Origin: an uncultured bacterium
Lineage (GTDB): Bacteria; Patescibacteriota; Minisyncoccia; Phycocordibacterales; PALSA-1337
Direction: 5' to 3'
DNA length: 48,438 nt
Assembly (NCBI GenBank): GCA_903864905.1
Contig: CAIPHR010000073.1
Location: 1-48,438, forward strand
This document shows, in pieces, positions 2,782 to 22,105 of the stretch (position 1 is the stretch's first letter; every line of letters begins with the position of its first letter). Under the pieces are notes generated by a model. That model searched no databases and was not told the DNA's origin. It was given only the letters and a program-made list of their open reading frames with translations. A program made the translations under genes and the position numbers.

Positions 2782-2846
2782 GTTTGTTGTGTAGTTATCT
2801 GTATATGTTATGGGACAAGACTACACATGTTATTTATTTAAATTAT

Positions 2847-2855
2847 TGGTATAAT
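2847..2855 (+). promoter_or_regulatory. Extended -10 box TGGTATAAT upstream of the giant gene (about 40-nt leader)
   Basis: TGGTATAAT read directly. The leader contains a GAGGA/AGGAAG SD-like sequence before the ATG at 2899. Confidence 0.45.
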
Positions 2856-2898
2856 TTATGAGACTGGGCCTCAGTTTGAGGATCCAGGAAGACCTATA

Positions 2899-5800
2899 AT
2901 GTACTTTAGAAAAAATTGTTTTGAAACATTGAATCAGCGGCCATTTTCAACGGTTCTTTTTGGCGTATTTGTATTAGTTTTTCTTGTTTCTTTCTCTGGT
3001 GTAGCTAGAGCATCGATCTATACACCTGGACAAACTCTCGAACCAGATTGTGCTCCAGGATCAATAAATTGTGGCGTTATCACTCCGAATGCTAGCGCTT
3101 CGCAAACAGGACTTCTCACATCAACTGATTGGACTTCTTTCAACAATAAATTTTCACTAACATTGAATAGTGGCAAGATCTGGATCGGTGATGGATCCGG
3201 TCAGGCTACACCTATCGAAATTTCCGGTGATGCAACACTCTCAAATTCTGGCATCATAACGATATCTGATAATGCGGTCACTACGGCAAAGATCCTCGAT
3301 AGAAATGTTAGTTTAGCAAAGTTGCAAGATATTGGTGCCAGCAAATTGCTAGGAAACCCGACTGGTGCGGCTGCATCTACGACAGAGATATCTATTGGTA
3401 ATGGTCTCACATTTTCTGGTACAGATATAAAAGTCAATGCACCGACATGTCCATCAAATTCATTTTTGACATGGGATGGATCTGCATTTTCTTGTTTGGC
3501 TGATATATCTGATCGTATAGCTAGTGCGCACAATTTCCTCTCTGGGCCATTGAATGGCTCTGCGGCACCTGCTTTTCGTACGATAGATGCATCAGATCTA
3601 GGTACTGGTGCAACTACGAGTCAGGAAGTATTGCTTGGCAATCAGACATGGTACCAACTGCTTGATCCTTCTGGAAAGATCAATGTTAGCGCACTGCCGA
3701 GTACGGTTACAGGATCACTCAAATTCAAAGGCACATGGAATGCACTCACCAATACGCCAACACTGACTGCTCTTGGTGGAGGGGGAAGCTCCGGAGATTT
3801 CTATGTTGTTGATGTTGCTAGTACTACTGATCTACTCGATGGAGGTCATATGTCATGGAATGTAGGCGACTGGGTAGTTCATAACGGTGTGACTTGGGAT
3901 CGAGTATCGCAAGGTGTCACAGTTTCCAGTGTAAATGGTCAAACTGGTGCTGTAGTTCTGAGTACCAGTAATGTCAGTGAAGGTGTTAATGAATATTTCA
4001 CCAATGCACGTGCTAGAGGTGCTATGACCGGTGTCGGTCCAATAGTTTATTCTACTACATCGGGTAATATAGATTGCCCGACTTGTGTTCTCGCCAGTAC
4101 GACTAATGGTGATATATTGGCTGGTACAGGTATAGATCCTTCAGGCTCTCTATCAGATCGCTTGATCGGTAGTGGTGATATCACATTTAGCTTAAATAAT
4201 ACAGGAGTGACTGCTGGTGGTTACGGTGGAAATATAGCAGTGGGAACATTCACTGTTGATGCTCAAGGAAGATTGACATCTGCTGGTACAACGACTTTGG
4301 ACGCAGCATCAATATCTTCAGGTTCATTATCAGTTGCTCGTGGAGGTACTGGGGTTGCAACATTCACATCAAAAGGAATTTTATATGGTAATGGTACTAG
4401 CGCACTTTCTTCTTCTGCAGCTGGTACATCTGGTCAATTCCTCGTGGCCAATGATAGTGGTGTACCCAGTTTTGTTTCCGCTTCTGGTGATCTCACAGTT
4501 GCTTCGTCTGGAGCGATGACTATAGGAACAGGAGCTGTAAACTCTACAAAAATATTGGACGGTACTATCCTAAATGCAGATATTTCGGCAAGTGCTGCTA
4601 TAGCGTATGCGAAACTCAATCTTGCAAATTCTATAGTGAATGGAGATATTGCAAATGGGACGAGCACCAATTCCAAACTTGCAAATTCAACAGTTTATTT
4701 CACGCTTGGAACTTCTGGAAATGATGTCAATTTATCCAGTACAGTCGCAGCTCTTGGTGATACTCTCATTATAAATATTCCCAATGCATCAGCAACGAAC
4801 CGTGGTGTAGTTTCGACAACTACACAAACTTTTATTGGTGCAAAAACATTTAGTGGTAACATGAGCGTGATAGGTACTACTACACTCACTGGTAATCTCA
4901 TAACTTCTAGAGGCCCTGATCATTTGACAGATGGAGTACAGAATGATGTAGATCTCGGAACTGGTTCATATTTTCATTATATGGGTAGCAGAGCGGCTAC
5001 ATTTACGGGATTCATTGGTGGGTCAGATGGTAGAGAGTTTACACTTTTGAATGATTCTGATCATGATATAACCCTGACAAACAATGATACTGGTTCGATC
5101 GATACAAGTCGCATAGAAACGATGCACGGTGATTCGGTTATCATACCTCCAGAAGTTTCTGTTGGACTCCAATATGATGGTGGATCTAGTCGTTGGCATA
5201 TCATCTCGTTTCCTGCAACTGCACAAGCTATTAGTAATTATGCATATCTTAATGATGGTAACAGTTTTGGTGCATCTGCATCCATCGGCACGACAGATAG
5301 TTACGCTCTACACTTTATGACTAGTGGTAGTACGAGATTCTCTATTGGTACTACGAGCGCTAGTTTGGAGGGTAGTGGAGTAACATCTATAACAACAGAT
5401 AATTCACTTTCTCTATCATCTGGTGCAGGCTCCCAACTCAATATAATTTCTGGAACAAATGGAACTTTGAGTATAGATTCGGCGTTGAGTGGGGCCGTAA
5501 ATATTGGCACCAATAGTAATAGTAAAGTTGTTTCTATCGGTAATACTACAGGTGCATCCGCACTTAATCTAAATGCTGGGTCTCAAGGTATCAGTATGAA
5601 TGGAAATATTGCCATCTCTTCTCCTAGTTCATTCTCTTCTGGTTCAGGACTTTTCACCGTCAATTCATCTGGTGTAGTTTTGGCTAGTAGTTCTTCAGTT
5701 ATAGATATGACTGGTTCAGGAGTTCTTGGTTTGAATACGACCACCAATCGTGCGATAACGACAGGCAATGGCATGTTCACTCTAGGTGGAGGGCTCACGG

Positions 5801-10895: not shown

Positions 10896-12146
10896 ATGTG
10901 GAAGAGCAAAATCGGCATAATTATAATTTTTATATCACTAGTGATACCAGTATCTTTCAGTTGTGCTGGTACTATTCTCGCTACGCATAAATATGCTTGG
11001 AGTAATAATATTGGTTATATCAATTTTGAGAATGTGATAGTGAATGATTCCAATCTATCTGGTTTTGCTTGGTCAGAAAAATCTGGCTGGATAAAATTCA
11101 ATCCTGCAAAAGGTGGTGTATATAATGATGGCAATGGTCATCTATCTGGTTTTGCTTGGGGTGAAGGTTTGGGTTGGATCGATTTTAGTGGTGTAAATGT
11201 TAGTACAACTACTGGAAAATTTTCAGGATCCGCTTCTGGACCTCTAGTCGGTACTATCAACTTTGATTGTCCAAATTATTGTGATGTGAGGACTGATTGG
11301 ACAGTTGCACCTATAATACCACCAGTTAATCCTCCTATTACTCCAACCACAACTCCTATTGTTACGCCTGTTATTACATCGACTAGTCACACTAGTAGTG
11401 GTAGCAGAATGTCTCAGACTGCCGGTATCTACAATTCAGTACATGTGGATACTATTGAAAAACCACTAGTTATTGCCCCTCAACAATCTGGTAGTTTGAA
11501 GAAGCAAACACTGAGTGGATTGGTTACTATAGATATTCCAGCCAATAATGTTCTTGGTATAACCACTTTTTTTATTAATCAGGATTTACTTGATACATCA
11601 AATAAGTATTTGGTCTTGGGAAATACTAGATTAATAAACGGTGCATTCTATGATATATATGCTCTCGATCAAAATAGTTTGTACGTTCATTATTTCAATA
11701 AGCCTTTATTTATAACATTACCATTGTCTATCGATCTACAGGATAGAGATGATCTGGGTCTATATTGGTTGAATGAAACCAATTGGAAATGGGTACTCAT
11801 ACCTGATGCAATATTTGGAGATACAAATGTTAGTTTCAGTGTAGATCATCTCACTAAGTTCGCTATTTTTGCTATGCAAAATAGTGATGACGGTAGTGGG
11901 GAAGTAGATAGTTCAAATATTTTATCTACCAATATACCAGAGAGTCTGACTTTGCCTCCTAGTCAGATGTCCAATTATTTGGATAATGAAAAAGCAAAGA
12001 TGGAGGCTGATCAATTGGAGCAATTGAACCTATTGGAGTCAACCAGTACTCTAGTTTCAGAAACATCAAGTGGTATGTGGGCTATTATTTTCCTAGTACT
12101 TGCTATATTTATCATTATTATCTATATGGTGAAGAGAAAGAAATAA
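10896..12146 (+). CDS. Surface protein with aromatic (F/Y)AW..N.G(W/Y)I.F repeats and a C-terminal membrane anchor
   Basis: 416 aa with an N-terminal signal. Repeats are YAWSNNIGYINF, FAWSEKSGWIKF and FAWGEGLGWIDF. Has a Pro/Thr linker and a C-terminal TM ending KRKK. Confidence 0.65.
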   Translation: MWKSKIGIIIIFISLVIPVSFSCAGTILATHKYAWSNNIGYINFENVIVNDSNLSGFAWSEKSGWIKFNPAKGGVYNDGNGHLSGFAWGEGLGWIDFSGVNVSTTTGKFSGSASGPLVGTINFDCPNYCDVRTDWTVAPIIPPVNPPITPTTTPIVTPVITSTSHTSSGSRMSQTAGIYNSVHVDTIEKPLVIAPQQSGSLKKQTLSGLVTIDIPANNVLGITTFFINQDLLDTSNKYLVLGNTRLINGAFYDIYALDQNSLYVHYFNKPLFITLPLSIDLQDRDDLGLYWLNETNWKWVLIPDAIFGDTNVSFSVDHLTKFAIFAMQNSDDGSGEVDSSNILSTNIPESLTLPPSQMSNYLDNEKAKMEADQLEQLNLLESTSTLVSETSSGMWAIIFLVLAIFIIIIYMVKRKK

Positions 12147-12153
12147 AAAATCA

Positions 12154-12181
12154 AACCCCACTGACCTAAGTCATTGGGGTT
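12154..12181. terminator. Bidirectional hairpin between convergent genes
   Basis: AACCCCACTGAC / GTCATTGGGGTT stem with one mismatch, an A-run on the left. Lies between the stop at 12146 (+) and the stop at 12208 (-). Confidence 0.5.
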
Positions 12182-12207
12182 GAGTGAGTAAAATGAACGT
12201 GGTTCGG

Positions 12208-12909
12208 CTACTCAATACGTTCTTGCCATTTTACGCCAGAACATATGAGGTTATCGAACACTCCATTGTGTTCTATTCTTTCCTTTTCAGAACACAGAAG
12301 CACGGCTATCCGTTTCTGCTCACGATCCCATGGTTTCGAGATATTGTCCTCGAGAAAACCCTTTAGGAATCTAGCTCTGAATGCATCGCAAGCGATGTCT
12401 CGGAAATCGATACGGAGAAACAGTACTGGTTCACTGCGCAGCGAGCGCAGTAAAGCTGGCCACTTCTCTATGAAGTTCATAGAATCAGTCTTTAACTCCA
12501 TAAACTTGGTACTGAGGTCGAAACCTTCCGGCTTCATGTCTTCGTACCAGTTCGGTCTATAGTCAGCGTGGCTGACTCGGATTTTGAATGGAGGGATCGC
12601 TATGTCATTGCTGACATCCTTGCATGCTTGCAATAAAACACGGCGCAAGGTGACGTGATCAGAGACGAACTTCTTGTTCGAGTCTTGATGATGGATCTCG
12701 ATCCGATCACCTCGGTTTGAGAAGAACCAAAAGTCTTGATTCTTTAGTAACTCCTCTATTGTGAGACCCAATTCTGTAGGGCAGTCGATGGGTGGTGCAA
12801 ATAATTCGTCACTACCCCAACATTTAAGGATGTAATGCTCCTCGTGACCCCTGCCTCCGTATCTGGCAGTGATCAGAAGTGTTTTGATAGCTTTATTTTC
12901 CGTATTCAC
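12208..12909 (-). CDS. Hypothetical protein (no recognisable motif)
   Basis: 233-aa ORF and the longest frame here. The overlapping + strand ORFs are shorter and look antisense. Sits at the left edge of the GC-richer block. Confidence 0.55.
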   Translation of the reverse strand: MNTENKAIKTLLITARYGGRGHEEHYILKCWGSDELFAPPIDCPTELGLTIEELLKNQDFWFFSNRGDRIEIHHQDSNKKFVSDHVTLRRVLLQACKDVSNDIAIPPFKIRVSHADYRPNWYEDMKPEGFDLSTKFMELKTDSMNFIEKWPALLRSLRSEPVLFLRIDFRDIACDAFRARFLKGFLEDNISKPWDREQKRIAVLLCSEKERIEHNGVFDNLICSGVKWQERIE

Positions 12910-13182
12910 TTTTTCCTTTCATTTTTAGTTATTGTTAAATCAAGGTGCTAAAACAATGATAGCACAATATGTGCTGATTGTCAATTTAAGTGTTGCGGAC
13001 CTCGGACGTAGTTGGAACCAAATCCTAGGGAATATAAGGGAGTTGTGTAGTCTCGCTGGAGACCGTCAGAGTTAGTAATATATCGTCAGTAGCGTAAGTG
13101 ATTGAATAGGCATGATGAATATAATCGGGCGTTAGAAAACCTTTTATTTTATGGATAAAAATGGTAGATTTAGGTTACTTCT

Positions 13183-13575
13183 ATGGGAATTTTGGATTTG
13201 AACAATATAAAGGAGGCTCTCCAAATAGCAGGCAAAATTGAATTTTATCCTCAAATTTTGGAAATGCAAGAAAAACTTCTAGATCAACATAAAAGGATCT
13301 CTGATTTGGAGGCGGAAAAAAAAGGTTTGGTGGAGAAACTGGAAATTCAGGGATCTATTCTTTTTGAAAACAACGCTTATTGGATAGAGAAAAGTGGCAA
13401 AAAAGATGGACCATATTGCTCATGTTGCTGGGATGATCAAAAAAAGCCAATAAGAATGCATCCTTGTGGTAATCCAGCGGTTTATGAATGCCCGAAGTGC
13501 AAAAGTAGGGTTGTAGTATATTCTAGTCGAGATAATCCTCCTCGTGCCGCTCAATTTATACCCGATTACATGTAA
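13183..13575 (+). CDS. Coiled-coil plus four-Cys zinc-ribbon protein, first gene of the R-M operon
   Basis: 130 aa with an N-terminal heptad-like region and a C-terminal CSCC...C..(x)..CPKC. Its stop lies 3 nt before the mod ATG. Confidence 0.55.
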   Translation: MGILDLNNIKEALQIAGKIEFYPQILEMQEKLLDQHKRISDLEAEKKGLVEKLEIQGSILFENNAYWIEKSGKKDGPYCSCCWDDQKKPIRMHPCGNPAVYECPKCKSRVVVYSSRDNPPRAAQFIPDYM

Positions 13576-13578
13576 TTT

Positions 13579-15687
13579 ATGAAACTCACCGACAACGAAA
13601 AACGCGATGCTATCAAATACCTCGAATCCGGCAAGCCCCTTCCGGAAAAGTATCGTTTTTTATTGTTTGATGACGACCGTGAGGTAGAGCTTCTGTGGAA
13701 TGGTAAGTCCAATGAAGTTACCAATGTCGTTCTGCCGTTTCAGACTATAGAGCAGATAGATGAGCCGAGAAGCAATGACAAGATCGGTTTGCAGGACTCA
13801 CTTTTTGATACTTCAGGAAGACAGATTACCGGCTGGACCAATAAATTGATTTGGGGAGATAACAAACTTATCCTTTCATCGCTCAAGAATGGACCGATGA
13901 GGAAGGAGATCGAAGCCCAAGGCGGTCTCAAGCTCATTTACATCGATCCTCCGTTTGATGTTGGTGCTGATTTTTCCATGGATATTAAGATCGGTGACGG
14001 GGAAGATGAAGAAAGTTTTACAAAGAAGCCCTCAGTCATTGAGGAAATAGCCTATCGTGACACTTGGGGCAAGGGTGCCGACAGTTTTATTGCAATGATT
14101 TATGAGCGATTAAAGTTGATGCATGATTTGCTGGCGGAGGATGGGAGTATTTATGTGCATTGTGATTGGAGAGTCAGTGCCTTTATGAGATTGGTCTTAG
14201 ATGAAGTTTTTGGCAGTGATAACTTTAAAAATGAAATAATCATTCATTATACAGCCGTTGGTCTGAAGGCAAAATCAAAGAAGTTTCATCAAAATACTGA
14301 AAATATATATTATTTTGTCAAAAATAGAGAGCGAGCTCCATACAACGAAGTGTTTGAAAAATTAGATACACCAAGAACTGCCAGTAAGCATCATTTTGAT
14401 TCAGAGACAGGAAAGGCTAGTCGTGTTAGAGATGAAAATGGGAATATTCAGTATTTTGAGGTCTGGGAAAACAAGGTTGATAATTTTATTGAGGTTCCAG
14501 CATTGCGAGGAGAACAAAAGCTTGGATATCCTACACAAAAGGCAGAGATATTATTAGAAAGAATTATCAAAGCTTCCTCAAACGATGGTGATCTCGTAGC
14601 TGACTTTTTCTGCGGTTCCGGCACAACACTAGCAGTAGCTGAAAAACTGAGAAGAAAATGGATCGGGACTGACCTTGGGAAATTTGGCATTCATACGACG
14701 CGTAAGAGAATGGTTGGGGTGCAGAGGGAACTCAAGAAAGAGGGTAAGAATTTCAGAGCCTTTGAAATATTGAACTTGGGCAGGTATGAGAGGGATAATT
14801 TTGTAAATGTCAGCGGCGATTTGAGGGAAGAGGAAAAACAAAAAGTGCAGGAACGAAAGGAGCAGGAATTCATCAAACTGATCCTCACCGCCTATAAAGC
14901 CGAAGCTGTGACCTCCTATGATACTTTTGTGGGTAAGAAGCGCGATAGGCTAGTCGCCATCGGACCGATCAACACCCCAGTATCGTCACAGTTCATAGAT
15001 CGGATCCTGGAAGAGTGTGTGATGAATAAGGTTACGAAAGTAGACATACTGGGGTTTGACTACGAGATGGGATTGGATACATCCAAGGCAAAGGAGTATG
15101 GTATCGATGTACAACTCAAGGTTATTCCGAGAGAGGTTTTCGACAAGAAAGCCGTGGAGAAAGGGCAGGTCAAATTTTACGATGTCGCCTTCATAGAAGT
15201 CGAAGCGATCAAAAAAGGCCAAGGCAAAATTGTGGAAGTGACGATTAAGCTCAATGACTTCTCGGTATTCTATAATCAAGATGATTCCGGAGAGATCGAA
15301 GAAGCTTTGAAACCGGGAAGCTCAAAAGTTATCGTCGAGAATGGTCAGGTGGTGAAGTTAAGCAAGGATAAAAAGACAGAGCTTATCTCAAAGGAAGTTT
15401 TGACCAAGAAATGGAGTGATTGGATCGATTATTGGGCGGTGGACTTTGATTTTGCCAGCAGAAAAGAGATCGTCAAAGAGATGGATAAGGACGGCAAAGA
15501 GGCGGAGAAATGGACGGGGGACTATATTTTCGACAATGAATGGCAGAGCTTCAGAACAAAGAAGAATCGCAATCTTGAGCTAGTCTCGGCTCCGAAAGAT
15601 CTGCCGAAAGGCAACTATAAAATGGCTATAAAGGTCGTTGATATTTTTGGTAATGATACGACGAAGGTGATAGAGGTTAAGATATAA
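13579..15687 (+). CDS. mod: Type III R-M DNA methyltransferase (Mod), N6/N4 beta-class
   Basis: 702 aa. Motif [13 protein letters not shown], with motif [17 protein letters not shown] about 220 aa downstream. Paired with a helicase-nuclease in the same operon. Confidence 0.85.
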
Positions 15688-15691
15688 ATGT

Positions 15692-15901
15692 ATGTATAGA
15701 ACTTCCGTAAATTCAACAAATATCACATCTATAGGCTATGAAGCTCAAACGGCCACTTTGGAAGTGGAGTTTACTTCTGGAGATGTATATCAGTATTTCA
15801 ATGTACCCGAGTACCTATATCAACAGTTTTTGAACGCATCCTCTCATGGACAATTTCTGAACGATCACATCAGATATAGTTATCGCTATCAGAAGGTATG
15901 A
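15692..15901 (+). CDS. KTSC domain protein
   Basis: 69 aa. ITSIGYEAQTATLEVEFTSGDVYQYFNVPEYLYQQFLNASSHGQFLNDHIRYSYRY fits the KTSC consensus. Confidence 0.7.
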   Translation: MYRTSVNSTNITSIGYEAQTATLEVEFTSGDVYQYFNVPEYLYQQFLNASSHGQFLNDHIRYSYRYQKV

Positions 15902-15908
15902 TAATGCC

Positions 15909-16685
15909 ATGTTTACACCAAAAACAGAAAAAATTAAAGATATTGTAATCGATAAACAAGAAGTCATCACGCAACTTGAGAGCATTTTTACTGCAAAGAC
16001 CAGGATATACATTGATTACGCCAATGTCAGACCATGGAGCGTAAAGCTCGGTTGGCATATTGATCTGAAGCGACTTAAACAGTTTCTAGACTCATTCAAC
16101 ACGATCGAGGCTGTGAATTTTTACAATGGTTATTTGGTCGGCGATGAAAGGTCGGAGAAGGAGAAGAAAGAGGCTGAAGATAATAAATATATTCTCCGAA
16201 CAAAGCCGGTAAAGATCCTTACGTTCTCTATTGACGCGACGAGTGTTCTTCCTGACTCGACGGTCTTGCTTGATCAATTCGTCAGTCGGGCTCTCCTGAA
16301 AAAATACGAGATATCCACTATCGAGTATCTCAATGAAAAGTTCAAGGATATGAATAAAAAAGGGGAGTACACCATCGAAGAAAAAAAGTGCAATTTCGAT
16401 GTCGAAATAGGAGTAAACATGCTTCTTGATTGTGAACGAAAAAGCGCAGATACTTTTGTCTTGTGGAGCGGTGACAGTGATTTTGCCGATTCGATTGAGA
16501 AACTTATGAGTGCTGGGAAGAAAGTCTTTTTGTTCGCAACGGCGAGGAAGGTTTCAAGAGAACTATCGGCTCTAGCTAGCAAAGGACTGATGGTTTTTGA
16601 CATTCAGAAGATCCGTGATTTTATATGCTGGAAAAAGGAGATAGAACGCAAAGGGGACCCCGGTAAAGAGGCCCCCAAGCAGTAG
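15909..16685 (+). CDS. NYN/LabA-like (PIN-fold) putative ribonuclease
   Basis: 258 aa with N-terminal RIYIDYANV and C-terminal VLWSGDSDFADSIEKL...KKVFLFA acidic motifs typical of the NYN domain. Confidence 0.65.
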   Translation: MFTPKTEKIKDIVIDKQEVITQLESIFTAKTRIYIDYANVRPWSVKLGWHIDLKRLKQFLDSFNTIEAVNFYNGYLVGDERSEKEKKEAEDNKYILRTKPVKILTFSIDATSVLPDSTVLLDQFVSRALLKKYEISTIEYLNEKFKDMNKKGEYTIEEKKCNFDVEIGVNMLLDCERKSADTFVLWSGDSDFADSIEKLMSAGKKVFLFATARKVSRELSALASKGLMVFDIQKIRDFICWKKEIERKGDPGKEAPKQ

Positions 16686-16762
16686 AATTAGTGATCTTGC
16701 GATCACGTACACAATAGCAGAAAAGAGTCTAAAAAGCAAGTTATCCACAGAAATCAAAATAT

Positions 16763-19447
16763 ATGGCCCTACACCCCAATTTTCCGAAAGACCCATATGC
16801 AATCATGGACCCGAGCATCCGGTGGTTTCCTGCTGACGAGGATTTGCGTGAAAAAGGCTTTGATAAGCTGATACCGCCGCTAGTGGCTGATCTGCGCAAG
16901 AAAGTAAAAGATTGGAGGGATAAGAGCTATGATGGCGCAAGCGCGACTTCCAAATCGCTGCTGAACTGGTGGTTCAAAGAAGATCATATCTTAGCTGATC
17001 AAAAAGGCGTCACTTATAACTTCAGATATTATTTCGCGCAGAGAGAGGCCGTAGAAACAGTCGTATGGCTATATGAAGTGGCGAAAGTAAAGGATAACCA
17101 TCATATGATCCGTTATAACTCGACCGGCGTTATAAGCGCGCAAATGTTCACTGAAGAATGGTTGAGGTTCGTCATAAAGATGGCCACAGGCGCCGGCAAG
17201 ACAAAAGTTATGAGTCTCGCTATTGCATGGGCTTATTTCCATAAGCTCTATGAGAAAGATTCCAATCTATCCAAGAATTTTCTTCTCATAACCCCCAATG
17301 TCATCGTCTTTGAAAGGATAAAGAACGATTTTGAAGGATTGAAAATATTCATGACTGACCCAGTTCTACCTGATAACGGATATCAGGGACAGAACTGGAG
17401 AGATGATTTTCAGGTGACATTGCATCTTCAGGACGATCTCCGGAGCATTTCAGACACGGGAAATATCTTTTTGACCAATATACACAGGGTCTTTGAAAGC
17501 GATATAAATGAAAGAAGTGCAGAAGATGAAGATTCATCGGATTATTTCCTTGGCGAAAAGCCAGTGACTAAAACAAATGATTCGACTGTAGATTTGGGAA
17601 TGATAGTAAGGGATATGGATGAATTGATAGTAATCAATGACGAGGCGCATCATCTACATGATGAAAAATCTGCATGGGTAAAGTCTATCGAGGATATTCA
17701 TAACCGTTTGAAGCTCAAAGGAAACAGATTGGCACTGCAGTTGGATTTGACCGCAACACCAAAGAAGAACGACGGCTCGATTTTCGTACAGACGATCTCC
17801 GATTATCCCTTGGTCGAAGCCATACATCAACGCATAGTAAAGAATCCTGTGGTTCCTGATGCTGCCAGCCGTGGAAAGTTGAAGGAGAATCAAAGCGCTT
17901 TATTCAGCGAGAAATATAGGGATTATATAAACCTCGGCATTGAAGAGTGGAGAAAGACTTATAAAACTTTTGAGCCGACAGGGAAGAAATCGATCTTGTT
18001 CATCATGACTGATGATACCAAGAATTGCGACGAGGTCGCCGAATATATACAGACGAGCTTCGCTGACTTAAAAGGCGCAGTATTGACTATCCATACTAAC
18101 AAGAGCGGTGAGATCTCGGAAAGCGTGACAGGGAAAAATAAAGAAGAGCTGGATAAATTGAGAAAACAGTCAAACGATATCGATAGCTGGGAGAGTCCCT
18201 ATAAAGTTATCGTGTCCGTGCTCATGCTCAAGGAAGGGTGGGACGTAAAAAATGTTACTACTATCGTCGGACTCAGGCCGTATGCAGCCGATTCCAAGAT
18301 ATTGCCAGAACAAACACTAGGAAGAGGTCTACGCCGAATGTTTTTCGGTGACGATAGTATTGAAGAATATGTAAGCGTTGTAGGTACACCTGCATTTATG
18401 GAATTCGTTGAGTCAATAAATGGGGAAGGTGTTATCTTGGAGCATAAACCGATGGGAATTGGTTCAGAACCAATCACACCTACTGTAATCGAGGTTGATA
18501 AGGATAATCCCAAAAAAGATATTGAGAAGCTGGATATCGAGATTCCGGTGATGTCTCCGCGAATTCAGAGAGAATACAAGAATCTCGTCGAGTTGGATGT
18601 TTCAAAATTTGGCAATAAGAAAGTGTCGGTTAAGGTCTTTTCTGAACAGGAAAAACGCGAAATAGTCTTCAAGGATGTTGTGGGCGAAAAGACTCATCAT
18701 ACGACCATACTTACCGGAGAGATCGAGCCGAACTATCAAAGCGTCGTCGGATTTTTCGCTCAAGCGATTATGAGAGATCTAAGGCTTTTCGGATGTTATG
18801 ACATCTTGTTCGGCAAAGTAAAAGAATTTATAGGCAACCACATGTTCGATAAGCCCATCGAACTGTCTGATCTGAATACGCTTAGAAATCTATCCGAAAT
18901 CGAACACATAAAGCTGATCAAGGAATCTTTCAAGAAGGCTATCAACGAGCTTACTGTTCAAGATAAAGGAGATACGGAGATAAAGAATTATATAAAAATA
19001 AGCGAGGCTCGTCCGTTCGTTGTGAACAATAAGTCCTATTTATTGCCCAAAAAGTCTGTCTTCAACAAGATTGTCGGCGATAGCGATTTCGAGCTTGAGT
19101 TCTCCAATTTTATCGAGAACTGCGATGATGTGATCTCATTCTCAAAGAATTTCCAGAATAAAGAGGCAAGCGCACTCCGCATTGAATATAAAAATGCCGA
19201 GGGATTCATCGCTACCTATTATCCTGACTTCTTTGTTAAGAAAGACGATAAAACTGTCTATATCATCGAGACAAAGGGAAGAGAGGAGGAAGATGATAAG
19301 CTGAAATTCGAGAGGCTCCTTAAGTGGTGCGAGGATGTAAATGATAGACAAACCAAGATGGTCTACAAAGCCTTGTATATTAGACAAGAAGAATGGAACA
19401 AAGATAAAGTTAAGAACTTTGAAGAATTAACCTCCGTTTATAAATAA
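16763..19447 (+). CDS. res: Type III restriction enzyme Res subunit (SF2 helicase plus PD-(D/E)xK nuclease)
   Basis: 894 aa. Walker A MATGAGKTKVM, DEAH box INDEAHHL, motif VI-like QTLGRGLRR, and C-terminal YYPDF...YIIETKG. Confidence 0.85.
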   Translation: MALHPNFPKDPYAIMDPSIRWFPADEDLREKGFDKLIPPLVADLRKKVKDWRDKSYDGASATSKSLLNWWFKEDHILADQKGVTYNFRYYFAQREAVETVVWLYEVAKVKDNHHMIRYNSTGVISAQMFTEEWLRFVIKMATGAGKTKVMSLAIAWAYFHKLYEKDSNLSKNFLLITPNVIVFERIKNDFEGLKIFMTDPVLPDNGYQGQNWRDDFQVTLHLQDDLRSISDTGNIFLTNIHRVFESDINERSAEDEDSSDYFLGEKPVTKTNDSTVDLGMIVRDMDELIVINDEAHHLHDEKSAWVKSIEDIHNRLKLKGNRLALQLDLTATPKKNDGSIFVQTISDYPLVEAIHQRIVKNPVVPDAASRGKLKENQSALFSEKYRDYINLGIEEWRKTYKTFEPTGKKSILFIMTDDTKNCDEVAEYIQTSFADLKGAVLTIHTNKSGEISESVTGKNKEELDKLRKQSNDIDSWESPYKVIVSVLMLKEGWDVKNVTTIVGLRPYAADSKILPEQTLGRGLRRMFFGDDSIEEYVSVVGTPAFMEFVESINGEGVILEHKPMGIGSEPITPTVIEVDKDNPKKDIEKLDIEIPVMSPRIQREYKNLVELDVSKFGNKKVSVKVFSEQEKREIVFKDVVGEKTHHTTILTGEIEPNYQSVVGFFAQAIMRDLRLFGCYDILFGKVKEFIGNHMFDKPIELSDLNTLRNLSEIEHIKLIKESFKKAINELTVQDKGDTEIKNYIKISEARPFVVNNKSYLLPKKSVFNKIVGDSDFELEFSNFIENCDDVISFSKNFQNKEASALRIEYKNAEGFIATYYPDFFVKKDDKTVYIIETKGREEEDDKLKFERLLKWCEDVNDRQTKMVYKALYIRQEEWNKDKVKNFEELTSVYK

Positions 19448-19448
19448 T

Positions 19449-19979
19449 ATGGGACCACTGATTGTCATCATAGTAATAGTTGTTGTCATCCTGTGGTATC
19501 GGAGGAGAAATAAACCTCACGCAGAGAACAAATTTGATGTCCACGCATTTCTTCATGCCCAACCCAGTTACGATCTTAACATCTATAAAAAGAAACAATA
19601 TCTGTTTGACACCTCGTCAGAGTTTCTTTTTTTCAATATTGTCACCGAAATTATTGGTGCTGATTATTATGTTTTTCCTCAAATAAATTATTCACACATT
19701 ATTGCTACTCGGTCTGGATCATCCTATGAAAATCGAAGATATAGAAGTCATATTGAAAAAAAGTCAGCTGATTTTGTAGTATGTGACAAAAAGACGTGTA
19801 TGCCTCTGTTGGTTATCGATTTGGACGGATCAGTGCATGATAGGCCAGATATACATGAAAAAGATGTCGAGATAGATGAAATACTTAAGGCTATTAATTT
19901 GCCAATACTGCGATTGACTAATGAGGAGTCAAAAGATAGGGAATTAGTTAAGGAGAAAATCTTTAAGATAATTAGATGA
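19449..19979 (+). CDS. DUF2726-like (NERD/endonuclease-related) protein with N-terminal TM helix
   Basis: 176 aa. KKSADFVVCDKKTCMPLLVIDLDGSVHD resembles the DUF2726 core. The start lies 1 nt after the res stop. Confidence 0.55.
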   Translation: MGPLIVIIVIVVVILWYRRRNKPHAENKFDVHAFLHAQPSYDLNIYKKKQYLFDTSSEFLFFNIVTEIIGADYYVFPQINYSHIIATRSGSSYENRRYRSHIEKKSADFVVCDKKTCMPLLVIDLDGSVHDRPDIHEKDVEIDEILKAINLPILRLTNEESKDRELVKEKIFKIIR

Positions 19980-20749
19980 TACAAAATATCTTTTCACATT
20001 ATTGGTCATACGGTCCCTTACAAACATATCTAGCAGTAGCTTTCAGCTTCTTACTTATTTTGCCGTACATGTGGTATTGGACACGGGAAAGCGATAAAAC
20101 TAGAAGGATGGTACTTGTGGTGATAGCGAGTGGTGTGATTATCGTTCCAGCCAGTATTTATCTAGAATATTTGGTCCACAATAAAATCATATACCAGGCA
20201 CTGTTTGAAGAATCTCTGAAACTAATAATGTTATTAGTTTTTATTTACTTATTTAGAATAGATAAGAAGAACATAATTGTTTATGGAATATTGATAGCTC
20301 TAGGTTTTGCATTTTTTGAGAATGCTATTTTTGCACTTCAACCATTATCGGAGTCGTTGACTTCCATGGGTATTCTGTTGATTAATCGATTCATGGGCGC
20401 AACGAATTTACACATATTAACAACAGGGCTTATTAGCCTGGCTATCTCACAGTATTATTCTTCGAAGCGGTCTAGAATATTTCTAATTTTGGTTCCCGTC
20501 TATTTTGTTACTTCCGTCGTACTTCATTCGGGGTTTAATTCATTAGTATCGGGCAATTCAATCATATGGTACGCTTTTGCCATTATTTGGTTTTTCTCTA
20601 TTCTGTTTGTTTGTTTGAAATATAGCTATGACTTATCAGTCAATCATGAAGTGTTTCAGTACAACAAATTCTCTGAAAATATCTATATATTTTTAATTAT
20701 AGCGATAGGTGTACCACTGGTGGCAAGTTATTTCCTCAGTATAGTTTAA
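19976..20749 (+). CDS. Polytopic membrane protein, PrsW-family intramembrane protease-like
   Basis: 257 aa with about 7 TM helices. Motifs FEESLKL, GFAFFENAIF, NLHILTTG and HSGFNS resemble PrsW EExxK/FxxxE/HxxxN. Its start codon overlaps the upstream stop codon (ATGA). Confidence 0.45.
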   Translation: MIQNIFSHYWSYGPLQTYLAVAFSFLLILPYMWYWTRESDKTRRMVLVVIASGVIIVPASIYLEYLVHNKIIYQALFEESLKLIMLLVFIYLFRIDKKNIIVYGILIALGFAFFENAIFALQPLSESLTSMGILLINRFMGATNLHILTTGLISLAISQYYSSKRSRIFLILVPVYFVTSVVLHSGFNSLVSGNSIIWYAFAIIWFFSILFVCLKYSYDLSVNHEVFQYNKFSENIYIFLIIAIGVPLVASYFLSIV

Positions 20750-20779
20750 AGTCTGATTAGCATTTTTCTAGAATCGGCA

Positions 20780-20785
20780 TATAAT
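20780..20785 (+). promoter_or_regulatory. -10 box TATAAT, 6 nt upstream of the ATG at 20792 (leaderless-type)
   Basis: Read directly; no SD sequence between the box and the ATG. Confidence 0.4.
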
Positions 20786-20791
20786 TAGCCC

Positions 20792-22105
20792 ATGAAAACC
20801 AACCTAAAAGTAAACATCGCCAAAGATGAATATGGTCATGACCTCGTGATCGACATTGGTGTGCTTAAAAATTTATTTATTGCCGGGATGTCTGGATCAG
20901 GCAAGTCTACGATATTGCACAACATAATAAGCACGCTGATCGCCAATAATAACCCAAATGAATTAAAATTGATATTGATAGATCCTAAGCGTATAGAACT
21001 CAGTGTTTATACTAGTGTCCCTCATCTCCTCACACCTACGATCATTGACCCCAAGAAGGCAGTACTGGTACTGAAGTGGTCTGCTAAGGAGATAGGACGA
21101 AGGCTTGATACATTGAAGAACAATAACTGCAAAGATATCAATGCATATCATAGAGATGTACTAGGCCATGCTATCGAAAAGTTTAATAAACGTGTAAAGT
21201 CTGACGAAGAAGATCATTTTAGTACATCAACATTGCCAGAGACAATGCCCAATATGGTCATCGTTATAGACGACCTTTCAAACTTGCTGCAAACATATCC
21301 AAAGGAAACGATATCTACAATATTGCAAGTTATCGAACTCGGTCATTCTGTGGGAGTATATTTCATCTTTACATCGACAAGAGTTGGTCAGAAGATATTT
21401 GGCAAAGAATTGCAGAGTGCCATGGGTGCTCGCATCGCTCTGCAGATGTCTGCGACCGCAGACTCGAGGCTTGTTATGGGAACCACTGATGCCTGTCAAC
21501 TACATGACCCTGGAGATATGTTATTCCGTGATGGTAAAAAATATATTGTTCGCGGGCAGGTCAATATGTTCACATACGAGGAGGCGCAATCCATAGCGAA
21601 AACAGTATACGATCAATATAAGGATGAAATTACTGATAGTATCAATTTTGGATCACCAACAGCTGGCGCATCTGCCGTATTCGACGCTTTGAATAGGGAG
21701 TCTTTGGAGGATAATGATGATATGTATGAACCTGCTAAGGAGTTTGTGGTTTCGCGAGGAAAGGCATCCACGTCATTCATTCAACGCGGACTCGGTATAG
21801 GCTATTCTAGGGCGGCTAAATTAATGGATCTTCTGGAAGATAGGGGAGTTATCGGTCCTGCAAATGGAAGTGAACCGAGGAAGGTAATGGGTCAGGATAC
21901 TGCAGATCAAGATGATAATGAAATATATGAGAAAGTTCGAAAGCTAGTAATTTCTTCAGGTCAGGTCTCATCCTCATTTATTCACGACAAAATTGGTATA
22001 GGGTATTCTCGGGCAGTACTAATGATGGCAAAGCTCGAACGAGAGGGGGTTATTGGACCAGCGAGCTCTAATAAACCGAGGAAGGTTCTGGTGGCAAAAG
22101 AGTAA
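20792..22105 (+). CDS. FtsK/SpoIIIE-family DNA translocase: motor domain without membrane anchor, with two tandem gamma (winged-helix) domains
   Basis: 437 aa. Walker A GMSGSGKST, Walker B VIVIDDLSNL, ARIALQMSATADSRLVMG..GDMLF. Two gamma-like copies: ASTSFIQRGLGIGYSRAAKLMDLLEDRGVIGP and VSSSFIHDKIGIGYSRAVLMMAKLEREGVIGP. Confidence 0.85.
   Translation: MKTNLKVNIAKDEYGHDLVIDIGVLKNLFIAGMSGSGKSTILHNIISTLIANNNPNELKLILIDPKRIELSVYTSVPHLLTPTIIDPKKAVLVLKWSAKEIGRRLDTLKNNNCKDINAYHRDVLGHAIEKFNKRVKSDEEDHFSTSTLPETMPNMVIVIDDLSNLLQTYPKETISTILQVIELGHSVGVYFIFTSTRVGQKIFGKELQSAMGARIALQMSATADSRLVMGTTDACQLHDPGDMLFRDGKKYIVRGQVNMFTYEEAQSIAKTVYDQYKDEITDSINFGSPTAGASAVFDALNRESLEDNDDMYEPAKEFVVSRGKASTSFIQRGLGIGYSRAAKLMDLLEDRGVIGPANGSEPRKVMGQDTADQDDNEIYEKVRKLVISSGQVSSSFIHDKIGIGYSRAVLMMAKLEREGVIGPASSNKPRKVLVAKE

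Follow-up and report, generated by a model that had tools for sequence, protein, structure and literature searches.

The 48,438-nt stretch of Patescibacteria DNA analysed here (the window) carries an intact type III-like restriction-modification (R-M) operon. It comprises a leader gene for a Zn-ribbon/coiled-coil protein (13183-13575, plus strand, 130 aa), a type III Mod methyltransferase gene (13579-15687, plus strand, 702 aa) and a type III-like Res helicase-nuclease gene (16763-19447, plus strand, 894 aa). Two further plus-strand genes lie between mod and res, encoding a 69-aa KTSC-domain protein (15692-15901) and a 258-aa NYN nuclease of the LabA-like, PIN-like kind (15909-16685). Downstream of res are a plus-strand gene for a TM-anchored DUF2726/DUF559 protein with a Vsr-like nuclease fold (19449-19979) and then a PrsW gene. 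Successive gaps between the six open reading frames are 3, 4, 7, 77 and 1 nt, with -4 nt before PrsW; frames, domains and spacing (-4 to 77 nt) agree exactly with a first-pass annotation of this DNA. That annotation had also judged the 7-kb block to be more GC-rich than its flanks, a claim that did not hold up: at 0.406 the block is not meaningfully richer than the window as a whole (0.399), and only its immediate flanks fall below that (0.379 and 0.388).

Mod is a beta-class methyltransferase akin to known type III Mods. It matches PF01555 (9e-40) and the PADLOC model MTase_III (8.4e-113), motif IV (DPPF, residue 123) precedes motif I (FCGSGTT, residue 344), which is the beta-class order, and its sequence matches in the PDB include the Mod of 6k0w (4e-14) and EcoP15I Mod (4zcf_A, 1.7e-10). 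The protein ends in an Ig-like tail. Res matches ResIII (4.9e-19) and the PADLOC model REase_III (3.2e-23) and combines SF2 helicase motifs (Walker A TGAGKT at 142, DEAH at 293, motif VI QTLGRGLR at 517) with a C-terminal PD-(D/E)xK nuclease signature (PDFF at 821, IETKG at 835, ExK at 835-838), the nuclease domain being visible only by motif and by a weak RE_endonuc match (0.003). Sequence searches of the PDB with Res gave no match at E ≤ 0.01, so that homology to a characterised type III Res such as that of EcoP15I was not detected, and the best curated family, NCBIfam BPTD_3080, scored 280.9 bits, below its cut-off of 800; we therefore call Res type III-like. As in canonical type III systems (EcoP15I/EcoP1I), a beta-class Mod, here detectably related to that of EcoP15I, is encoded upstream of a helicase-nuclease Res on the same strand. 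Unlike in those systems, mod and res are neither adjacent nor overlapping, with 1,075 nt from the mod stop to the res ATG, a Zn-ribbon gene leads the operon, and Res lacks a match to solved Res proteins. The Res lineage to which this operon belongs is patchily spread through Patescibacteria.

The outer genes differ in how closely they are tied to this operon. The leader protein has two CxxC pairs (CSCC at 79, CPKC at 103) and no Pfam, PADLOC or NCBIfam match. Its gene ends 3 nt before mod. Among sixty homologues found, those in loci L178 (88% identity) and L179 (60%) lie directly ahead of Mod, one in L156 precedes a type I HsdM, and one in L157 has housekeeping surroundings. The Zn-ribbon protein is a candidate controller of the methylase or of the R-M operon; its place in a joint module, as first proposed, is not supported, as it recurs as a leader of methylase genes and is not a partner of the KTSC and NYN genes. 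The DUF2726 assignment was upheld by a profile match above cut-off (PF10881, 7.7e-22, 77.8 bits against 24.7), alongside an N-terminal TM helix and a match to DUF559 (PF04480, 1.6e-6, 28.3 bits). Its proposed membership in the module was not: none of eleven Patescibacteria homologues adjoins Res or PrsW (one has a Mod-like match about 1.2 kb away), and DNA homology with a near-identical relative (L076, 90% DNA identity) stops 21 nt before the res stop codon. Neither DUF2726 nor PrsW is conserved with the system, even in that relative; a conserved DUF2726-PrsW pair, or a role for it in the R-M unit, was rejected, and we regard both genes as unrelated neighbours.

The family assignments of both proteins encoded between mod and res hold. 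KTSC matches PF13619 over the whole domain (positions 1-58 of 58; 2.4e-24, 85.2 bits against a cut-off of 25), and its PDB matches are the free-standing KTSC protein 7x8c (1.2e-15) and the C-terminal arm of HerA from Paenibacillus SIR2-HerA (8wiv_A, residues 628-695, 9.4e-18), a defence system in which KTSC forms part of the HerA arm (PMC11472057). This genome has no other KTSC gene. NYN, likewise identified correctly at the outset, matches PF01936 (1.3e-14, 55.3 bits against a cut-off of 24.2) and the PADLOC models NYN (6e-12) and, over the NYN domain, HEC-09 (5e-9). A PDB search by sequence gave no match for NYN. Its AlphaFold2 model (pLDDT 87.7, pTM 0.81; tail below 50) has 2qip as its top Foldseek match (E 8.5e-7, probability 1.0), and the active site is intact, with the acidic residues D36, D164, D189 and D191 invariant in 26 sequences. 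From its family, NYN is a putative metal-dependent ribonuclease. The disordered C-terminal tail (residues 243-258) is encoded by codons that overlie the terminator of a predicted antisense RNA gene described below. At E ≤ 0.001, NYN has homologues in 1,798 clusters at 90% identity, the best 120 of which are 77-99% identical. Our literature search found no paper joining KTSC with NYN and, for NYN domains together with antitoxins and antisense RNA, only general comparative-genomics surveys.

The order mod, KTSC-NYN, res recurs in many other contigs, so the arrangement is not a one-off. Comparison of loci shows that KTSC and NYN form an autonomous mobile cassette of about 1.05 kb and are not a built-in part of the R-M system. 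The cassette extends from the KTSC ATG to about 55 nt beyond the NYN stop; across 19 loci, DNA identity is 60-90% within these bounds and about random outside them. Between different classes of Patescibacteria the cassette DNA remains 70-80% identical, which implies recent transfer. NYN is 66-97% identical over loci whose Res proteins are 26-96% identical, and the two identities are uncorrelated (Spearman rho 0.14, P = 0.23): L016 and L024 share 92% identity in Res and 74% in NYN, and the window and L083 share 83% in NYN and 28% in Res. Conservation begins at the KTSC ATG, with no conserved promoter upstream, and expression of the cassette therefore depends on its host operon.

Restriction genes are recurrent hosts of the cassette. 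In at least three type III lineages, whose Res proteins are less than 35% identical, it immediately precedes res; these include lineages whose Res is 28-34% identical to the one studied here. It is also found behind type I hsdS, MmeI-like (type IIG-like) and GmrSD (type IV) genes. Upstream neighbours include nine type III Mods, type I HsdM, HsdS and HsdR, Eco57I/MmeI-like methyltransferases and GmrSD. A ResIII protein is the immediate downstream neighbour in 20 of 57 non-redundant loci, against a background of seven ResIII genes in this 1.04-Mb genome. About half of the cassette loci have no restriction gene as immediate neighbour, and some lie between housekeeping genes (pyruvate kinase, ribosomal protein L33/DsbD, DegT). 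Scars are visible at several junctions: a 30-codon stub of another res allele stands directly before KTSC in L008, and hsdS C-terminal stubs follow the cassette after 66-68 nt in L032, L017 and L139. The cassette thus appears to spread between loci by ordinary recombination, with flanking restriction genes serving as homology anchors and stubs of res starts and hsdS ends left behind. An integron gene cassette was considered and dismissed, with no integrase nearby and no GTTRRRY core of an attC site in the alignment; the hairpins at the 3' end, which could be taken for attC, belong to a minus-strand promoter-terminator unit. Carriage by phages was likewise without evidence: no relative of NYN was found on viral contigs, so any link to phages is only indirect.

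That minus-strand unit, which the first-pass annotation had missed, is predicted to encode a convergent antisense small RNA at the 3' end of the cassette (16640-16710, minus strand). The predicted transcript of about 60 nt would run from roughly 16705 to 16645 and fold into a hairpin with a GNRA loop (HP2, 16691-16706), a conserved linker that lies antisense to the stop codon of NYN, and a second hairpin of 9 bp including a G·U pair (HP1, 16653-16676). HP1 is followed by the terminator-like UUUGCGUU, a site that was flagged on the minus strand. The corresponding covariance model (R1) matched at 86.9 bits (E 1e-17), compensatory changes occurred in 10 of 15 pairs compared with 5.5 in shuffles (0/500), and the HP2 loop was GNRA in 66 of 72 sequences. 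A search of Rfam with both strands of 13000-20100 gave no match at E ≤ 1. A sigma70-type promoter precedes the gene on the minus strand (16711-16749), with the -10 element TATTGT (16711-16716) separated by 17 nt from the -35 element TTGCTT (16734-16739). Across 74 non-redundant loci, the -10 element fits TAnnnT in 72, the -35 element resembles TTGACT, TTGCTT or TTGACA, and all 74 have a spacer of 16-18 nt that varies in sequence. Just upstream of the -35 element, TGTGGATAA (plus strand TTATCCACA, 16741-16749) fits the DnaA-box consensus, and the DnaA-box-like TGTGGAYAA is found upstream of the promoter in 31 of the 74 loci.

We also considered a plus-strand reading of these hairpins, in which they would terminate the NYN mRNA or mark a site of its processing. 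On that strand HP1 would contain an A × C mismatch, and its pairing falls to 84.1%, compared with 99.1% for a minus-strand RNA; the G·U pair of HP1, the GNRA loop and the conserved promoter all favour the minus strand, and the plus-strand reading was dropped. The antisense RNA accompanies every member of the NYN subfamily down to 53% identity, KTSC-less members included, and a second copy is present in this genome. Since the wider family of NYN with antisense RNA lacks the KTSC gene, KTSC is not a universal partner.

The mod-res junction acts as a swappable cargo slot in this Res lineage, and the cassette is one of its occupants. In a cargo-free relative (L071), mod and res are adjacent, with a canonical 4-nt junction. 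Elsewhere the slot holds genes for AIPR, OLD/TOPRIM, HEPN-like, Fic, DUF3800 with ClpP, or WYL with NYN proteins (the last in L178, where a 266-aa protein is followed by WYL and a distant NYN), and in every case the cargo runs up to the conserved res ATG. Most operons of the lineage lack the cassette. In a tree of Res, the operons that carry it fall into four well-supported subclades and are interleaved with operons bearing AIPR, OLD, HEPN-like, wHTH and DUF3800-ClpP cargo. Given that abortive-infection genes (AIPR, OLD/TOPRIM, HEPN-like, Fic) occupy sister slots, a role for NYN in defence or abortive infection is plausible by 'guilt by embedding'. To this extent the original idea of a composite defence module survives; a single six-gene machine does not.

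The cassette shares features with several known systems. In the type I toxin-antitoxin systems TxpA/RatA and BsrG/SR4 of Bacillus subtilis, an antisense RNA overlaps the 3' end of the toxin gene, and the convergent small RNA predicted here similarly overlaps the 3' end of a putative toxin mRNA and has a promoter and terminator of its own. Type I toxins are short hydrophobic membrane peptides. NYN, by contrast, is a soluble nuclease of 258 aa, encoded with an extra small protein partner; the cassette may act like a type I toxin-antitoxin system but is no member of the class. That a putative nuclease toxin of this size is unlike known type I toxins counts against the toxin reading. Type II VapBC systems pair a PIN-domain toxin with a small antitoxin encoded upstream. 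In the cassette, too, a small gene is followed after 7 nt by a PIN-like nuclease gene, and the pair is mobile and often found in defence islands, but KTSC has no known antitoxin fold and, with conservation starting at its ATG, there is no conserved autoregulated promoter ahead of the pair.

Genes nested in restriction operons offer a second set of comparisons. Guilt by embedding has been applied to defence genes nested in multi-gene systems, with Hma, BREX, DISARM and type I R-M analysed (Payne et al. 2024, bioRxiv 10.1101/2024.01.29.577857). As in that study, whose embedded families include RNases (RelE, HEPN, NYN), extra genes here stand between restriction-type genes; the host, however, is a type III lineage of Patescibacteria. 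The NYN candidate of that work, HEC-09, is embedded in Hma systems and showed no defence in tests (bioRxiv 10.1101/2024.01.29.577857); it differs in its N-terminal region, lacks a KTSC partner and has no antisense RNA reported for it. Its failure to protect against the phages tried counts against a defence reading, with only the NYN domain shared. PrrC, an anticodon nuclease embedded in the type IC EcoprrI locus, acts as a 'guardian' of R-M (PMC12707154). Both loci place a nuclease gene, RNA-targeting in PrrC and putatively so here, within a restriction operon, as a plausible back-up when restriction fails. PrrC, in contrast to NYN, is of the ABC-ATPase/HEPN type; it binds to the R-M complex and has T4 Stp as its trigger, and the two are not homologous. 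The combination of ABC-ATPase and anticodon nuclease masked by R-M that marks PrrC/RloC guardians is absent here: the protein has an NYN domain only and often lacks an R-M partner. As the cassette has an RNA of its own and is also found away from R-M loci, dependence on R-M proteins is unlikely.

On balance, and with guarded confidence, we favour the reading that KTSC, NYN and the antisense RNA form an RNA-controlled RNase toxin module with a role in abortive infection or addiction, lodged in a swappable slot of a type III-like R-M operon. NYN would be the RNase toxin of a toxin-antitoxin-like or abortive-infection module, kept down by the antisense RNA either through pairing with the 3' end of the mRNA or through binding of the protein; KTSC may be a nucleic-acid-binding partner, adaptor or sensor. 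The trigger would be transcription shut-off or loss of the locus, for instance on infection by a phage or when the R-M island is lost. Decay of the labile antisense RNA would then allow NYN to degrade RNA of the cell or the phage and to arrest growth, with the result that the restriction enzyme is backed up, the island is stabilised, or both. Against this reading stand the roughly half of cassette loci that have no restriction gene next to them, some of them among housekeeping genes, the dependence of expression on the host operon and the lack of copies on viral contigs. A more specific variant is rather improbable in our judgement. KTSC takes its name from the C-terminal domain of lysyl-tRNA synthetases and is seen at the arm tip of a defence HerA, and the tRNA-processing PRORP enzymes have an NYN-type nuclease domain; the cassette could be a restriction 'guardian' in which KTSC delivers a target, possibly tRNA, to NYN, the antisense RNA silences it until infection, and the DnaA-box-like TGTGGATAA couples release to replication status.

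An alternative account is that the cassette is a purely selfish addiction element with no defence role and restriction operons are merely mobile, insertion-tolerant hosts that provide homology. Its autonomy, its high DNA identity across classes, the recombination scars, the housekeeping contexts and the lack of defence by HEC-09 in the cited tests would all fit. Recognised abortive-infection and defence families (AIPR, OLD/TOPRIM, Fic, HEPN-like) nevertheless fill the sister slots, and in three divergent type III lineages the cassette occupies the site just 5' of res; addiction and defence are, moreover, not mutually exclusive. We consider an exclusively selfish element unlikely, if far from implausible. 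A second alternative, closest to the composite module of the first-pass annotation, makes KTSC and NYN obligate type III subunits co-evolving with Mod and Res or, in a strong form, has the R-M complex keep NYN silent until restriction is inhibited, as for PrrC (PMC12707154). The cassette does start 4 nt after mod and, in type III loci, is always immediately 5' of res. It also accompanies four classes of restriction genes and occurs without any, NYN and Res identities do not covary, unrelated cargo replaces it on a fine phylogenetic scale, and it has its own RNA regulator, all of which make such integration quite improbable.

Two further explanations fare worse. C-proteins of type II systems delay or tune synthesis of the restriction enzyme, and the cassette could regulate res in a comparable manner, with NYN cutting the mod-res transcript at the hairpins or the antisense promoter hindering read-through into res. 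The promoter, 24-52 nt upstream of the res ATG, does oppose operon transcription, and no separate sigma70-like res promoter was detected; but the same cassette and RNA are found where no res follows, and most operons of the lineage manage without them, so we hold a regulatory role of this kind to be very unlikely. That NYN is a housekeeping RNA-processing enzyme of Patescibacteria, present here by chance, is scarcely tenable. The protein is very conserved and some loci lie among core genes, but the distribution is patchy (the RNA covariance model matched 6 of 151 sampled genomes), the genomic position varies, and the identity of cassette DNA between classes (~70-80%) implies recent transfer.

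Few defence systems have been recognised in Patescibacteria, a huge and uncultured radiation. If the favoured reading is correct, they would gain a candidate RNase-based toxin or defence module that is widespread (1,798 clusters at 90% identity), with an unusual three-part design of small protein, nuclease and antisense RNA, the last representing a family absent from Rfam. The principle of the embedded defence gene would then reach type III R-M, and a survey of what lies between mod and res in this lineage could supply a list of candidate defence genes. The stubs of res starts and hsdS ends would record how such cargo changes hands.

The window, contig C73 of a Patescibacteria (CPR) genome bin (1.04 Mb, 97% complete), carries a block of six plus-strand ORFs, which lie exactly where the first-pass annotation had placed them, under names that agree with profile searches. 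Their gaps of 3, 4, 7, 77, 1 and −4 nt reproduce its range of −4 to 77 nt; the GC excess that it described for the block is not real (0.406 versus 0.399 for the window). Mod (13579–15687; PF01555, 9e-40; PADLOC MTase_III, 8.4e-113) has the beta-class motif order, and among its PDB matches are EcoP15I Mod and a second type III Mod. Res (16763–19447; ResIII, 4.9e-19; PADLOC REase_III, 3.2e-23) has Walker A, DEAH, motif VI and a C-terminal PD...ExK, and its nearest NCBIfam family is BPTD_3080, with a score below the family cut-off. The restriction–modification (R-M) system is intact; we call it type III-like because Res has no match in the PDB, though Mod matches type III Mods. The Mod C terminus (residues 636–702; 15484–15687) gave a sub-threshold match to Ig-like DUF4625 (25.9 bits against a cut-off of 27), and its terminal 15-residue motif is kept across the lineage, right up to the mod–res junction. 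In the ~1 kb 5′ of the operon (12146–13182), profile searches support no gene; the best sigma70-like promoter match in this region (TTGACA-17-TATCAT with TG; 12984–12956, minus strand) is directed away from the operon.

Between mod and res lie a KTSC gene (15692–15901; PF13619, 2.4e-24) and an NYN gene (15909–16685; PF01936, 1.3e-14; PADLOC ‘NYN’ and HEC-09). NYN gives a confident AlphaFold model (pLDDT 87.7) with a single significant fold match, 2qip, which is a LabA-like NYN protein; four acidic residues never vary (D36, D164, D189 and D191). For KTSC, the matched structures are two free-standing KTSC proteins and, in the Paenibacillus SIR2–HerA antiphage complex, the tip of HerA's C-terminal ‘arm’ (PMC11472057). 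KTSC has been termed DNA-binding by Aravind and colleagues, who described KTSC genes that are linked to HerA and an endoDNase (PMC9503650). Our literature search found no paper on KTSC and NYN combined.

Among relatives of ≥64% identity, almost all have KTSC immediately 5′ of NYN. When the DNA of 19 loci, drawn from different Patescibacteria classes, was aligned, identity was 60–90% from the KTSC start codon to ~55 nt beyond the NYN stop and fell to background on both flanks. By these sequence comparisons, KTSC–NYN is a discrete mobile cassette.

We compared 117 loci (L-numbers), which form 91 non-redundant groups and come from metagenome contigs and species-representative genomes. The pairing with type III genes that the first-pass annotation had noticed recurs, with the cassette directly 5′ of res in several lineages: the window's own (Res 58–96% identical), a second one (L022; Mod 31%, Res 29–34%) and further loci (L083 and L136; Res 28–29%); in L018 the gene order is res then mod. 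Elsewhere the cassette follows type I hsdS (L023, L032, L017), an Eco57I/MmeI-like methylase paired with a PLD–SNF2 helicase (L028) or GmrSD (L025, L116). By Pfam tally, ResIII was the immediate downstream neighbour in 20 of 57 loci (for comparison, the window's whole genome has 7 ResIII-matching genes), and the 66 upstream neighbours scanned included nine type III Mods as well as HsdM, HsdS, HsdR, Eco57I-type and GmrSD proteins. The cassette is enriched beside restriction genes. At about half of the loci the immediate neighbour is not a restriction gene, and some cassettes sit between pyruvate kinase, L33/DsbD or DegT genes. In another type III lineage (L060; Res 35% identical), a distant NYN homologue (30%; 4434–5027) lies just 3′ of res and has no match to the antisense RNA model described below.

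Between pairs of loci, NYN identity shows no correlation with Res identity (rho 0.14, p 0.23): Res is 92% and NYN 74% identical between L016 and L024, and NYN is 83% and Res 28% identical between the window and L083. In a Res tree built from 20 operons of the window's own lineage, the operons with the cassette are spread over four supported subclades, each interleaved with operons bearing other cargo. The cassette, made up of KTSC, NYN and a predicted antisense RNA, is autonomous.

The mod–res junction of this lineage is a cargo slot, running from the mod stop to a well-conserved res start (ATGGCACTACATAAAGATTT...), with contents that vary. A phylum-wide sample of 400 genomes yielded Res relatives in 26. 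The slot holds KTSC–NYN in the window and its cassette-bearing relatives, is empty in L071, and elsewhere contains an AIPR protein (L046), an OLD-type AAA_21/TOPRIM protein (L048), small proteins with an Rx4-5H (HEPN-like) motif by eye (L049, L050, L052), DUF3800 with a ClpP-like protease (L051), Fic (L063), a wHTH protein (L053) or unknown proteins (L047, L054). Several of these cargos belong to families already recognised in abortive infection or defence. The situation is that of ‘guilt by embedding’, a concept from a study of Hma, BREX, DISARM and type I R-M that also lists the NYN candidate HEC-09, not protective in the tests done (bioRxiv 10.1101/2024.01.29.577857). The sister operon L178 (Zn-ribbon 88%, Mod 76% and Res 83% identical to the window's) encodes three proteins there (2819–4819), of 266 aa, 86 aa (WYL) and 313 aa (a distant NYN nuclease): a second ‘small regulator + NYN’ design at this junction.

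Insertion scars were of two types. In L008 (7659–7784), a short ORF with a Res-like start (MAPPLDFPKDPYAVLDQSIRWFPADEDL...) runs into the KTSC start; this 30-codon remnant of a different res allele (80% DNA identity to the resident res start) is a leftover of the insertion of cassette plus res. In L032 (10767–11018), L017/L101 and L139, stubs of the last ~55 hsdS codons lie 66–68 nt past the NYN stop, at the right edge of the cassette; L032 also has a complete hsdS directly 5′ of KTSC. Both types would be consistent with recombination that used homology in a restriction gene at one end and an illegitimate joint at the other. In the Mod/cargo/KTSC–NYN array of L081 (7857–9300), only the last ~73 Res residues are detectable, 1456 nt after NYN; most of res appears to have been lost and the cassette retained.

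Two conserved hairpins with covariation mark the 3′ end of the cassette, with compensatory changes in 10 of 15 pairs versus 5.5 in shuffles (0/500). A plus-strand reading of these hairpins was rejected in favour of a predicted minus-strand RNA (~16705→16645): the second hairpin pairs at 99.1% as minus-strand RNA (99 G.U cells) and at only 84.1% as plus-strand RNA, the first has a GNRA loop on the minus strand in 66 of 72 sequences, and the promoter is on that strand. Across 74 non-redundant loci, the minus-strand promoter has a −35 box of TTGACT (24), TTGCTT (23) or close variants, a spacer of 16–18 nt in every locus but of variable sequence, and a −10 box of TAnnnT in 72 (TATAAT in 19). Downstream of it come the first hairpin, a 14-nt linker that is conserved and antisense to the NYN stop codon, a G+C-rich second hairpin of 9 bp and then UUUGCGUU. 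Directly 5′ of the −35 box, window positions 16741–16749 (TTATCCACA; minus strand TGTGGATAA) correspond to the DnaA-box consensus, and TGTGGAYAA is kept there in 31 of the 74 loci. No Rfam family matched the RNA.

A covariance model built from the cassette RNAs scored the window copy at 86.9 bits. Another contig of the same genome has a second copy (G000:C63:39259–40077; L172 751–1569), in which a 251-aa NYN paralogue without KTSC is followed right at its stop by a model match (61.5 bits) and, ~115 nt further on, by the start of a serine recombinase gene. The model also matched after every KTSC-less NYN relative down to 53% identity, including those in Acidobacteriota-labelled bins, and not after the genome's five distant NYN paralogues. 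The RNA model matches after KTSC-less relatives too, so the core unit is NYN plus the predicted antisense RNA, to which KTSC was added within the Patescibacteria clade. Where KTSC is present, the NYN frame continues through the terminator hairpin; the tail encoded over it (residues 243–258) is disordered in the AlphaFold model, so that the predicted RNA seems to dictate the codons of this tail.

The first gene of the operon (13183–13575) encodes a 130-aa Zn-ribbon protein with two CxxC pairs and no profile hit. Homologues precede Mod in two more operons of the lineage (L178, 88% identical; L179, 60%) and type I HsdM in L156, and one occurs in a housekeeping context. Its recurrence ahead of methylase genes makes it a plausible candidate controller of methylase-first operons. 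The last gene, DUF2726 (19449–19979; PF10881, 7.7e-22), and the PrsW gene overlapping it are not part of the R-M/cassette unit. In one relative, a gapless alignment of 5492 nt at 90.35% DNA identity breaks off 21 nt before the res stop, and none of 11 Patescibacteria DUF2726 homologues examined adjoined Res or PrsW, with a Mod-like hit ~1.2 kb off in one. The gene for this PrsW-family membrane protease overlaps the end of DUF2726 by 4 nt; the gene after it, within 19976–22105, encodes an FtsK-like ATPase that lacks an anchor and has two gamma domains (PADLOC hits SspH and mad8).

NYN homologues formed 1798 clusters at 90% identity (E ≤ 0.001), the best 120 of which were 77–99% identical and nearly all 258 aa; at 50% clustering the family was small (42 representatives, E ≤ 1e-30). 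This pattern fits recent spread rather than old vertical descent. The first-pass annotation had proposed a composite defence module. Restriction does stand beside a probable RNase effector, NYN, but the architecture is that of an autonomous mobile cassette and not of one composite system. The cassette is most likely a toxin–antitoxin-like or abortive-infection RNase module under the control of the antisense RNA, and perhaps also of KTSC; it would work like PrrC and type I/II toxin–antitoxin systems while being a member of none.
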